Virus record (IMG/VR): IMGVR_UViG_3300019487_000010
Location: 1-44,817 of that record
Source: a virus
Reading direction: 5' to 3' (one strand)
DNA length: 44,817 nucleotides
Part shown: piece by piece, positions 23,686 to 25,561 of the stretch
Numbering within the stretch: the stretch's first letter is position 1
Layout: each line of letters begins with the position of its first letter
Made by a program: the position numbers and the translations under genes
The notes under the pieces: model-generated
What the model was told of the DNA's origin: nothing
Seen by the model: the letters and a program-made list of their open reading frames with translations, nothing else
The model's database searches: none

Positions 23686-23988
23686 TCACCTTCCTCCTCT
23701 TTGCTTTCCGAGCGCCCGTTCGAGCTTTTTGATCTCACGGGCCATGTCCGCGAGCTTGTCCGCTAACTTAGCGGGCTTGGCTCGTTTGAGAAGCTCCCCG
23801 TACTCTCGCTCGAGCGCGTGTATCGTTCCGACGTCGCGCTCGATCTGCTGATCCAACTGCGGGATCGCCTTCTCGATAAAGGCGAGTCGACCCTTGAGGA
23901 CCTCGCGCTCGTGCACCCGCGTGAGCATGGCGCACCGTGCGGTTTGAAGGCGCTTGTAGAGCGCCTTCTTGTCGCCCTCGTAGGTCAC
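23686..23988 (-). CDS. Hypothetical coiled-coil protein (100 aa)
   Basis: GTG start 6 nt after GGAGA in the conserved leader GGAGACAGCAG. Confidence 0.5.
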   Translation of the reverse strand: MTYEGDKKALYKRLQTARCAMLTRVHEREVLKGRLAFIEKAIPQLDQQIERDVGTIHALEREYGELLKRAKPAKLADKLADMAREIKKLERALGKQRGGR

Positions 23989-24003
23989 CTGCTGTCTCCT
24001 GTC

Positions 24004-24066
24004 CGCCTACCTCGTCAGCGCGCGGAGGCGACCCGCGCGGACCCCGCCCGTAGGCGGGGTTTCGGC
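24004..24066 (-). ncRNA. Type II hammerhead ribozyme motif HH-A
   Basis: Minus strand: GCC-GAAA-CCCCGCC-UACG-GGCGGGG-U-C/CGCGCGG-GUCGCCU-CCGCGCG-CUGACGA-GGU-AGGCG. All core nucleotides are present, with a GUC cleavage triplet and a loop I / 3' tail pseudoknot. Confidence 0.8.
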
Positions 24067-24067
24067 T

Positions 24068-24511
24068 CTACGCGTCCGCGTCCTCGTCCTCGTCCTCGTC
24101 CTCGTCCTCGTCGGACGCCTCCTCGGCCCCCGCCTCGGCCTCCTCGGCCGGGTCGCCGTCCTCCTCGTCGTCGTCCTCGTCGTCGTCCGAGTCCTTCTTG
24201 AGCTCAGCCGTGAGCTTGGCGAACTGCTTCTTCAGCCGCTCGAGCTTCTTGAGCTTCTTCGCCCGCGGGTCGAGCTCGATCTCGAGGAGCTCCTTGCGCT
24301 TCTGCCAGCGCAGGACCTGGTAGTCGCAGAACGCCTTCTTCCCCTCGAGGGTCTTGGGGAAGTCTTTCCGCTTGAGGATCACCAGGTTGCCGAGCTCGTC
24401 GTGGACCTTCGGGACCACGCTCACCTCCTTCGCCTCCTTCACCCGCGCGGGCTTCACTGCCGCCTTCGCCGCGGGCGTCTTCTTCGCCGCGGGCGTCTTC
24501 TTCGTGGCCAT
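24068..24511 (-). CDS. Small protein with a Lys/Ala/Pro-rich basic N-terminus and a ~45-aa poly-acidic C-terminal tail
   Basis: N-terminus MATKKTPAAKKTPAAKAAVKPARVKEAKE; C-terminus DSDDDEDDDEEDGDPAEEAEAGAEEASDEDEDEDEDEDADA. Confidence 0.6.
   Translation of the reverse strand: MATKKTPAAKKTPAAKAAVKPARVKEAKEVSVVPKVHDELGNLVILKRKDFPKTLEGKKAFCDYQVLRWQKRKELLEIELDPRAKKLKKLERLKKQFAKLTAELKKDSDDDEDDDEEDGDPAEEAEAGAEEASDEDEDEDEDEDADA
24081..24110. repeat. Hexanucleotide (tcctcg) x5 microsatellite encoding (DE)n
   Basis: Direct reading of 24081-24110. Confidence 0.9.
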
Positions 24512-24534
24512 CTTTCTCGCTCCTGTCTCCGAGG

Positions 24535-24597
24535 AACCTGCCTCGTCAGCGCGCGGAGGTCACCCGCGCGGACCCCACCTGCGGGCGGGGTTTCGGC
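24535..24597 (-). ncRNA. Type II hammerhead ribozyme motif HH-B
   Basis: Minus strand: GCC-GAAA-CCCCGCC-CGCA-GGUGGGG-U-C/CGCGCGG-GUGACCU-CCGCGCG-CUGACGA-GGC-AGGUU. The core is intact, and the differences from HH-A preserve pairing. Confidence 0.8.
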
Positions 24598-24885
24598 TCA
24601 GAAGTTCAGGCAGCCCGACTTGCCGCTGCCGTACCGAACCCGGATCTGCGTGAGCCTGAACCTGAGGAGCTCCCGCTTGGAGGTGTACTGGCCGTTCACA
24701 GCCTGGAAGTCCTTGTTTTCGTCGAAGTCCCTCTGCGCAGCCTCGAGGGAAGGGTACTTTCGGCCGTACGCGGCGCGGAGCGGCTCCAGCCCGAAGAGGC
24801 TGAAGGGGAACCCCGCTAGGCGGCCCTCGTTCGCGCCCTTCGCCTGGTCATCGAAGCTCTCCTGAAACCGCTCGAGGTTGCTCAT
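24598..24885 (-). CDS. Hypothetical protein (95 aa; possibly N-terminally longer, up to 24987)
   Basis: ATG at 24885 preceded by AGGAGAACC. The track ORF extends through a Pro/Ala-rich stretch from a GTG at 24987. Confidence 0.5.
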   Translation of the reverse strand: MSNLERFQESFDDQAKGANEGRLAGFPFSLFGLEPLRAAYGRKYPSLEAAQRDFDENKDFQAVNGQYTSKRELLRFRLTQIRVRYGSGKSGCLNF

Positions 24886-24904
24886 CTGGAGGTTCTCCTG
24901 TGCT

Positions 24905-25012
24905 TTAGACCCGGAGGGCGGCGCGAGCGAGGCGGCGGGCGCGGCGACGGTCGCCGCGGCGGGTGGCGGGGTCGTGGGTGTGACCACGGGGGTCGTGGCC
25001 GTAGAAGCGCAT
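24905..25012 (-). CDS. Possible 35-aa Arg-rich leader ORF directly after HH-C
   Basis: ATG at 25012 preceded by the conserved AAGGAGACAGCAG leader. The peptide is MRFYGHDPRGHTHDPATRRGDRRRARRLARAALRV, ending at TAA 24907-24905. It could equally be an off-frame artefact. Confidence 0.2.
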   Translation of the reverse strand: MRFYGHDPRGHTHDPATRRGDRRRARRLARAALRV

Positions 25013-25033
25013 TTTCTGCTGTCTCCTTCTGTC

Positions 25034-25096
25034 CGCCTGCCTCGTCAGCGCGCGGAGGCGACCCGCGCGGACCCCGCCCGTAGGCGGGGTTTCGGC
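25034..25096 (-). ncRNA. Type II hammerhead ribozyme motif HH-C
   Basis: Identical to HH-A except that stem II position 10.3 is C instead of U, so G:C replaces G:U. Confidence 0.8.
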
Positions 25097-25105
25097 TCTA
25101 CGGCT

Positions 25106-25489
25106 CTACTCCTGGGCGGTCGGAGCAGGACCCTCGTCCAGGTGCTCAACGGTCGGAGCGGGCGCGATCTCCTGGAGCCTCGCCTGGAGGCGAGCGATCT
25201 TGCGAGCGATCTTCTCCGCCGGCGAGAGCGGCGTCCGCGGAGCGGGCTCGAAACGATCGCGGTCCGCGCGCACCTGGCGGAAGGCGGTGCGGGCCGCGGT
25301 GAAGGCGTCGCGCCAGAGCGCGAGGTTCTCACGCGCGCTCTTGACCTCCGCGCGAGCGGAGCGGAGGTCGTTGCGCGTGAGCTGGAACTGCTCGTCCAAC
25401 GTGCGCCGCGCCTCGTCGTGGCGAATCCGCGGCTGAACGGCGGGGGCGCTCTTCTTCGTGCTCTTCGTGCTCTTGCTCTTCTTGGCCAT
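25106..25489 (-). CDS. Hypothetical protein with a Lys/Ser/Thr-rich N-terminus and coiled coil (127 aa)
   Basis: ATG at 25489 preceded by AGGAGACAGCAG. The longer track ORF would start inside the promoter. Confidence 0.55.
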   Translation of the reverse strand: MAKKSKSTKSTKKSAPAVQPRIRHDEARRTLDEQFQLTRNDLRSARAEVKSARENLALWRDAFTAARTAFRQVRADRDRFEPAPRTPLSPAEKIARKIARLQARLQEIAPAPTVEHLDEGPAPTAQE

Positions 25490-25552
25490 CTGCTGTCTCC
25501 TGCGCCCGCGGTGCGGGGGGTTTGAGGCTGCGGGCTCCCTGCTCACGCTCAT

Positions 25553-25561
25553 ATTGTACCA
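25553..25561 (-). promoter_or_regulatory. Extended -10 promoter element TGGTACAAT
   Basis: Minus strand reads TGG TACAAT. It sits about 60 nt upstream of the first small gene, and a 7-bp hairpin (25561-25578) overlaps the -35 region. Confidence 0.45.

Follow-up and report, generated by a model that had tools for sequence, protein, structure and literature searches.

The 44,817-nucleotide (nt) stretch of viral DNA analysed here in full (IMG/VR record IMGVR_UViG_3300019487_000010, hereafter the window) is a phage contig of 44.8 kb (ENA ERZ27251177, k141_1478206; the public record begins at another point), in which an operon of five or six small genes is punctuated by three type II hammerhead ribozymes, one in each of its first three intercistronic gaps. 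The operon is part of a replication module, lying between the genes for a family A DNA polymerase (PolA) and an ATP-dependent DNA ligase, and we think it probable that the hammerheads cut the operon RNA while it is being transcribed, dividing it into units with ends of their own. The layout has been known since a description in 2011; the array is a fresh example of it rather than a system of a new kind, and in itself would be no surprise to a specialist; what is added here is synteny across a whole clade and an interchange between ribozymes and hairpins, which sharpen an open question into an experiment.

The three elements are genuine type II hammerheads. At the Rfam gathering thresholds, the whole window gave exactly three matches, all to Hammerhead_II (RF02276) and all on the minus (coding) strand, with scores of 45–49 bits (E 3e-7 to 4e-6) against a gathering threshold of 37 bits (HH-A, HH-B and HH-C in Table 1). 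A scan with our own descriptor and a covariance model from relatives found the same three sites and no others in the window; a relaxed version of the descriptor matched once in 1.1 Mb of block-shuffled sequence (both strands), and a relaxed Rfam scan of the window added only noise, with no other ribozyme class. The catalytic core is complete in all three copies (C3–A9, CUGACGA; G12–A14, GAA; the A15.1–U16.1 pair; and C17, in agreement with the H17 rule), and each runs in the order stop codon, GCC (the 3' strand of stem II), GAA, stem III hairpin, U, C17, stem I hairpin, CUGACGA, GGC and tail. At the three-way junction, stem II is open and has 3 bp (GCC/GGC; GGU in HH-C), stem III has 8 bp and is capped by a 4-nt loop (UACG in HH-A), and stem I is a capped hairpin of 7–8 bp. 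The cleavage triplet is GUC, and the predicted cuts, 3' of C17, fall between 25070 and 25069 in HH-A (C25070), 24571 and 24570 in HH-B, and 24040 and 24039 in HH-C.

The tail after stem II (A-GGCGG in HH-A and HH-C, A-GGUU in HH-B) forms a pseudoknot of 5–6 pairs with loop I (UCGCCU with AGGCGG in HH-A and HH-C, GACCU with AGGUU in HH-B), the HH-B version being compensatory with respect to the other two. Over the three window copies and two from a distant relative, L039, this pseudoknot was 91% paired, compared with 14–55% in shifted controls, and two of its pairs showed compensatory changes (C-G/G-C/G-U and G-C/A-U); single-sequence shuffle tests gave weak results (p 0.04–0.16). Compensatory changes were also found at 11 of the 12 pairs of stems III and I across 25 related hammerheads. 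In core, junction, open stem II, capped stems I and III, GUC triplet and a 5–6-bp pseudoknot that joins loop I to the tail immediately 3' of a short stem II, the window copies are like the type II hammerhead RF02276 (Perreault et al., 2011; PMC3088659), from which nothing essential differs, although their stems are very G+C-rich and an 8-nt duplication could extend stem II of HH-A. HH-A matches HH-C at 97% identity over 77 nt; for HH-B the identity is 78%. The duplication, TAGAGCCG-TAGAGCCG, is in tandem at the junction between gene 1 and HH-A (25093–25108, minus strand), its first TAG being the stop codon; in the minimum-energy fold the extra TAGAGCCG copy can lengthen stem II, in competition with the pseudoknot strand.

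A preliminary description of this DNA had placed a hammerhead followed by a Shine–Dalgarno (SD) sequence in each of the gaps 25105–25013, 24597–24512 and 24067–23989. These coordinates are exact, and all three gaps hold their Rfam match on the coding strand; the hammerheads are 499 and 531 nt apart, each beginning at the stop codon of the gene before it, and all the gaps consist of ribozyme, GGAGACAG(CAG) and start codon. The element TGGTACAAT, which had been named as the promoter, is present upstream of gene 1 and is probably an extended −10 promoter: the window contains two matches to TGNTAYAAT where 0.11 would be expected, and both lie on the coding strand. No canonical −35 was found near TGGTACAAT, and a sigma-70 consensus scan returned no promoter. 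Transcription is predicted to start near 25546, giving a 5' untranslated region of about 57 nt to the ATG at 25489. The only other TGNTAYAAT match, TGGTATAAT (39462–39470, minus strand), is about 70 nt upstream of a 647-amino-acid (aa) open reading frame (ORF; 39393–37450).

Of the five occurrences of the 8-mer GGAGACAG on the coding strand, four are ahead of cistrons of the operon, gene 1 included, and the longer leader GGAGACAGCAG was found where it had been placed, after HH-A and HH-C as well as before gene 1. The idea of a conserved leader stands in so far as GGAGACAG and GGAGACAGCAG recur, but what recurs is mostly an SD sequence with its spacer, and AGGCGG or AGGUU is the pseudoknot strand. 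Likewise, the small genes are indeed split by ribozymes, but HH-A and HH-B enclose two ORFs (35 and 95 aa), not one. From 23988 onward the genes abut or overlap and are free of ribozymes down to the ligase, as had been described. No terminator-like site was found on the coding strand between 22000 and 29000, such sites occurring only on the non-coding strand; with one promoter-like site upstream and no terminator-like site on the strand, all three hammerheads would lie on a single processed transcript. Stem III and stem I were considered as intrinsic terminators and rejected, no U tract following either.

Table 1. Positions of features of the operon and its surroundings in the window, and ribozyme arrays in related loci
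Locus	Feature	Position	Strand	Remarks
Window	Primase-helicase	35263–32423	minus	
Window	ThyX	29795–28836	minus	
Window	Family A DNA polymerase (PolA)	28015–26015	minus	
Window	Gap from PolA to gene 1			~525 nt
Window	Extended −10 promoter-like element TGGTACAAT	25561–25553	minus	function inferred
Window	Leader/SD GGAGACAGCAG	25500–25490	minus	ahead of gene 1, no ribozyme upstream
Window	Small-gene operon	25489–23424	minus	
Window	Gene 1, 127 aa, ORFan	25489–25106	minus	ORF and ENA call; G+C at third codon positions (GC3) 0.89; stop TAG 25108–25106
Window	HH-A, type II hammerhead	25097–25031	minus	Rfam 49.2 bits, E 3e-7; R1 61.7 bits (in R1 training set)
Window	Leader/SD GGAGACAGCAG	25026–25016	minus	after HH-A
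Window	35-aa ORF	25012–24905	minus	directly behind HH-A leader; ENA call; GC by codon position ambiguous, coding status uncertain
Window	95-aa gene	24885–24598	minus	own AGGAGA SD; GC3 0.90; stop TGA overlaps HH-B start
Window	HH-B, type II hammerhead	24598–24532	minus	Rfam 45.1 bits
Window	Leader/SD GGAGACAG (continues GAG)	24530–24523	minus	before 147-aa gene; HH-B variant GGAGACAGGAG at 24530
Window	Gene 3, 147-aa protein	24511–24068	minus	disordered basic N-terminus, helical hairpin (residues 55–110), disordered acidic tail
Window	HH-C, type II hammerhead	24067–24001	minus	Rfam 47.8 bits; repeat family D2
Window	Leader/SD GGAGACAGCAG	23999–23989	minus	before gene 4 GTG start
Window	Gene 4, 100 aa, coiled-coil-like	23988–23686	minus	GTG start; weak homologue in same position in L002
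Window	Gene 5, 86 aa	23684–23424	minus	starts 1 nt after gene 4 stop; opens tightly packed ribozyme-free block to ligase
Window	ATP-dependent DNA ligase	start 23245 or 23203, end 22436	minus	
L007	3 type II hammerheads			order PolA, 149 aa, HH, 98 aa, HH, 111 aa, HH, ligase
L009	5 type II hammerheads			downstream of PolA, same strand
L012	2 twister-P5 ribozymes	5793–5849, 6237–6290		upstream of PolA, around 117-aa ORF
L027	2 type II hammerheads			downstream of PolA, same strand
L028	6 type II hammerheads			downstream of PolA, same strand
L038	4 type II hammerheads			downstream of PolA, same strand
L039	2 type II hammerheads			G+C-rich; leader GGAGACAGGAC-ATG as in window
L046	7 type II hammerheads			downstream of PolA, same strand
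L048	2 type III hammerheads			first copy Rfam 42 bits, E 3e-7

How might such an array work? Each hammerhead would fold during transcription and cut at the predicted site, while RNA polymerase would continue, so that the operon RNA would be released in pieces: an mRNA of roughly 476 nt for gene 1, one of 499 nt with the 35-aa and 95-aa ORFs, one of 531 nt for the 147-aa protein, and a distal one with genes 4, 5 and onward. Self-cleavage is predicted to leave a 2',3'-cyclic phosphate and a 5'-OH. The 3' end of each upstream piece would lie 27–36 nt past the stop codon and be formed by the G+C-rich 8-bp hairpin of stem III with its cyclic phosphate, probably a poor substrate for 3' exonucleases and poly(A) polymerase; each downstream piece would begin with the 5'-OH and the stem I hairpin, its start codon 23–31 nt after the CUGACGA core with the SD sequence between, and would have a 5' end without the monophosphate that stimulates RNase E and RNase J, and a ribosome-binding site in a fixed context. 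The ribozyme would then be a host-independent maker of RNA ends that does not stop transcription, leaving each small gene with its own mRNA stability and translation rate. The topology on which this scheme depends (type II, with stem III and the cyclic phosphate on the upstream side, and the 5'-OH and stem I before the SD sequence on the downstream side) is the one that the preliminary description had drawn. The identity, topology and positions of the ribozymes and the conservation of their layout are established here, whereas cleavage in vivo and its effects on stability and translation are inferred.

The wider proposal of the preliminary description, that cleavage segments the polycistron, is consistent with the layout kept in relatives (see below), but is neither new nor proven, the same hypothesis having already been published for clustered phage hammerheads (PMC3088659, PMC6765202). 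Triple hammerhead arrays cleave in vitro, and one of them in vivo in E. coli (PMC3088659), and in D. vulgaris in vivo cleavage has been demonstrated for type II hammerheads situated near phage-like genes (PMC8782182). Several points nevertheless weigh against segmentation of the transcript by cleavage. The fold energies of the three elements are no better than those of shuffles (z −1.1 to −1.6, at 65–79% G+C), the minimum-energy fold of HH-C is an alternative structure, and misfolding of the hammerheads in their G+C-rich context is possible; because fold z-scores fail to separate ribozymes from shuffles, we have relied on covariance models and covariation. The same leader also stands before gene 1, where there is no ribozyme, so the leader works independently of cleavage. 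Lastly, the segmentation hypothesis is still described as needing further work (PMC6765202).

The preliminary description had suggested a survey of related phages, and the gene–ribozyme–gene layout does recur near PolA in distant relatives. About 90 loci were collected by a PolA search of IMG/VR and JGI metagenomes, and their ribozymes were found with Rfam, our own descriptor and a covariance model, R1, built from 25 hammerheads. In seven loci whose PolA is only 26–31% identical to that of the window (L007, L009, L027, L028, L038, L039 and L046), two to seven hammerheads are located on the PolA strand just downstream of PolA (Table 1). In such arrays the ribozyme typically starts 3–12 nt after the upstream stop codon, and an SD sequence, (A)TAGGAGAT or GGAGACAG, with a start codon follows 14–69 nt after the CUGANGA core. 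The twisters of L012 start 13–15 nt after a stop codon, the same layout as in the hammerhead arrays.

Two groups of hammerheads in these relatives deserve separate comment. Those of L039 (12074–12148 and 13092–13167), which exceed the Rfam threshold at 46.2 and 37.6 bits, have a swapped U15.1–A16.1 pair (triplet GAC) and, between A9 and stem II, an additional U; they are a covarying core variant. In the arrays of L009 (12330–14049), L028 (6095–8395) and L046 (13428–16945), most hammerheads are missed at the Rfam gathering threshold, as are many in arrays of this kind, yet their cores are complete and their stems covary; in one subclass of them, stem II has 4 bp (GACU/AGUC), loop I has sequences like UAAAUCG and UAUAAGG, the tail is CUCAG, and no pseudoknot could be detected.

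A possible role of the ribozyme emerges from one of the genes that it follows. The 147-aa protein encoded between HH-B and HH-C is a divergent member of a conserved, unnamed family, which a profile search found in about 25 contigs of the PolA clade, often as two paralogues, its genes being in or near a ribozyme and small-gene array downstream of PolA. Where a gene of this family is accompanied by a ribozyme, the ribozyme starts at most about 55 nt from the stop codon, and in most cases at the stop codon itself. Where it is not, the same slot is taken by a terminator-like hairpin with a U tract (L003, L027, L043, L045, L051 and L056, and after the last family copies in L009, L028 and L038) or by a long hairpin (L002, L006 and L037). 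The closest relative, L002, has homologues of window genes 3 and 4 and, where the window has HH-C, a nearly perfect hairpin of about 36 bp (12171–12259; free energy −57.3 kcal/mol, z −7.6), which is a candidate RNase III-type site. Since the slot of the ribozyme is filled by terminator-like or long hairpins in relatives, a role in the formation of a protected 3' end is suggested, the ribozyme apparently making such an end without stopping transcription. A ribozyme differs from a terminator in that downstream genes stay transcribed, and from an RNase III site in that no host enzyme is needed. It is conceivable, and we put it forward tentatively, that one conserved gene family uses hammerheads, twisters, RNase III-type hairpins and intrinsic terminators interchangeably as its 3'-end modules.

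The tight coupling of ribozyme to stop codon could be read in another way. The ribozymes might be conditional switches, rather than constitutive stabilizers, whose regulated or destabilizing cleavage would set the survival of the distal mRNA (genes 4, 5 and the ligase): a ribosome terminating at a stop codon that abuts or overlaps stem II would block folding, so that cleavage would report upstream translation, or else Mg2+ or temperature. Throughout the clade, most copies indeed have 0–8 nt between the stop codon and the 3' strand of stem II, and regulated cleavage was raised as possible for phage hammerheads by Perreault et al. (PMC3088659). However, the cores are of the consensus, fast type (GUC triplet with pseudoknot), aptamer-like inserts are absent, genome compaction alone can explain the tight spacing, and the plain hairpins and terminators in the same slot of relatives point to end formation more than to sensing; we therefore think a switch improbable.

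In a somewhat less probable explanation, the repeats of about 77 nt, ribozyme plus leader, would serve chiefly as linkers for recombination, or be ends that hitch-hike with mobile gene cassettes, driving the gain, loss and shuffling of small ORFan genes, with RNA cleavage secondary. The near-identical hammerheads described above are direct repeats that flank single genes; hammerheads are more alike within genomes (0.52) than between them (0.37); the genes between ribozymes are mostly ORFans and vary from phage to phage; the tandem TAGAGCCG is at the edge of HH-A; and the leader GGAGACAGGAC accompanies the hammerheads of so distant a relative as L039. On the other hand, intact cores and compensatory changes in stems and pseudoknot show selection on an RNA fold and not just on DNA identity, no integrase or reverse transcriptase is encoded nearby, and the PolA–ligase position has been stable across deep divergence.

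It is very unlikely that cleavage is followed by ligation, turning the fragments 25069–24571 and 24570–24040 into exonuclease-proof circular phage mRNAs (499 and 531 nt), or into spliced ones, through the reverse reaction of the hammerhead or a host ligase of the RtcB type. RtcB joins 5'-OH and 2',3'-cyclic phosphate ends, which is the chemistry predicted for these fragments, and neighbouring ribozymes have identical stem II strands and cores, so that the fragment ends could rebuild a hammerhead. Two such ends, however, would pair only through a 3-bp stem II, the start and stop codons of the ORFs are ordinary, and spliced or circular products of such arrays were looked for and not found by Perreault et al. 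(PMC3088659); interchangeable 3'-end modules are the more probable of these two ideas. Least credible of all is that the elements are inactive relics serving merely as intercistronic hairpins, for even though high-G+C folding is not distinctive and degenerate copies exist elsewhere (such as the second copy in L223, below), every core nucleotide is kept in all three window copies and the pseudoknot has compensatory changes, and three relics without any core mutation would be unlikely.

Division of the transcript by self-cleavage has parallels in several known systems. RNase III sites in the polycistronic mRNAs of phage T7, reportedly the work of Dunn and Studier, are alike in being intercistronic structures at which a phage transcript is cut into mRNAs with hairpin-protected 3' ends and without termination, but in the window the cut would be made by the RNA itself, independently of a host enzyme, and would leave a 5'-OH and a 2',3'-cyclic phosphate in place of a 5'-phosphate and 3'-OH. 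Synthetic ribozyme insulators of the RiboJ type, said to have been introduced by Lou et al. in 2012, likewise put a self-cleaving hammerhead upstream of a ribosome-binding site to give a uniform, short, structured mRNA 5' end; the window element is natural, has type II topology and would also supply the 3' hairpin of the preceding gene. Also comparable are the triple arrays of prophages (in A. tumefaciens around ardA, C. scindens and A. caulinodans), in which several hammerheads on one strand, a few hundred nt apart, separate individual small genes of a phage transcript, and which have been shown to cleave (PMC3088659). Hammerheads are regarded as clustered when at least two are present on one strand within a few kb and flank single genes or short blocks, as they do in the window. 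The genes flanked by the prophage arrays were stressed as not constant (PMC3088659), whereas the window array belongs to a lytic-type replication module (PolA–ligase) of an uncultured phage, in a position that is kept across the whole PolA clade and linked with a single conserved family of small proteins. Twister, pistol, hatchet and hammerhead ribozymes are known to co-locate near phage-like genes (cited in PMC8782182 and PMC6765202), and while the window holds hammerheads only, elsewhere in the clade twister-P5 (L012) and type III hammerheads (L048) are used in the same gene–ribozyme–gene layout.

Arrays of this kind are common in phage contigs, around varied genes. At least 120 stretches of IMG/VR matched an exact pattern written for a single stem II variant that is common among type II hammerheads; among the matches listed (80 loci), R1 found 137 hammerheads, and 31 of the 79 loci with an R1 hit (39%) hold two or more, with a maximum of nine, always on one strand within a locus and with a median spacing of 416 nt. 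None of the 80 listed loci encodes the 147-aa family. Phage hammerheads flanking varied genes were also reported by Perreault et al. (2011; PMC3088659). Thousands of ribozymes are encoded in bacterial and phage genomes, and what they do there is for the most part still poorly understood; the present locus, with one promoter, three nearly identical ribozymes and defined predicted products, is a compact test case, which leaves the overall picture unchanged. The comparative result gives an old hypothesis a concrete, testable form, in which the ribozyme provides a protected 3' end without reliance on host RNases.

The small proteins themselves give few clues. In the AlphaFold2 model of the 147-aa protein the helical hairpin is confident, and the basic head and acidic tail are disordered. 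Searches with its single sequence hit nothing apart from L002, and a two-sequence profile again found L002 only; the family became visible only with a profile made from loci collected through PolA, and a full HMMER search then reached 914 clusters (50% identity) at E<=1e-3. It has no Pfam or PHROG model, a Foldseek search with the model gave no match, and a tblastn search of cultured phages with a family member found none. Gene 1 has no Pfam or PHROG match, genes 1, 2 and 5 have no detectable homologue in loci L002–L095, and over the same loci the small proteins other than those of genes 3 and 4 are ORFans. The 35-aa ORF apart, the small genes have GC3 values of a coding type (0.76–0.98). The preliminary description had thought of these proteins as early, and likely concerned with host takeover or anti-defence. 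This view finds no support, either in a place beside the genome end or early promoters or in recognizable takeover or anti-defence genes: the operon is set between PolA and ligase, the 147-aa family is conserved clade-wide, nothing in the sequence indicates early timing, and the small proteins gave no Pfam or PHROG match (PADLOC was not searched). A further ORF, of 75 aa with two CxxC pairs (zinc-ribbon-like; 23430–23203, minus strand), overlaps the end of gene 5 and is absent from the ENA calls; its stop codon shares one base with the ENA-called ligase start, which suggests translational coupling between the two.

All long ORFs of the window are on the minus strand, and this one strand carries, besides the replication genes in Table 1, those for a GpA-type terminase and a Mu-type portal, farther along than the ligase. 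Among GenBank phages, megablast, which detects near-identity, found no closely similar DNA, and the best PolA match there is 29% identical and shows no synteny with the window. An exact search of IMG/VR with the window's own hammerhead sequence gave no match. A scan of genomes revealed similar hammerheads in Dehalococcoidia and other metagenome-assembled genomes, yet these have no proteins in common with the window. In one of them, L223 (Dehalococcoidia chromosome OZ241913.1), a gene is bracketed by two type II copies (6950–7021 and about 7745–7810), the intact one of the same subtype (TAG-AGCC-GAAAC...), the second with CUGAUGA decayed to CCAAUGA; with no proteins shared, L223 offers no clue to the host. 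Scans for tRNA genes in the window, L002, L007 and L012 were empty; the gap between PolA and the first gene of L007 contains a stretch resembling a tRNA T-arm, GGTTCGAATCC (12240–12285), where ARAGORN calls no tRNA.

The corresponding gap in the window has features of its own. Its G+C content is lower (0.42–0.54) at about 25550–25800, and between 25676 and 25794 (minus strand) there are three AAGCACTT(G) motifs, two of them after the small palindromes GCTTATGCTATAAGC and GCTTACGGGGTAAGC, while a hairpin, AAAGCACAGCCGTGCTTT, adjoins the −10 element; these motifs, palindromes and hairpin could be operator or regulator sites. Nearer to PolA, about 125 nt downstream of its stop codon, is a perfect 19-bp inverted repeat with a 41-nt loop (25811–25889, minus strand; z −3.0), flanked by a 13-nt direct repeat, GCTGGTGGCAAGC (25924–25912 and 25869–25857). 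No U tract follows the inverted repeat, which could be a processing site or an unconventional terminator ending the PolA transcript.

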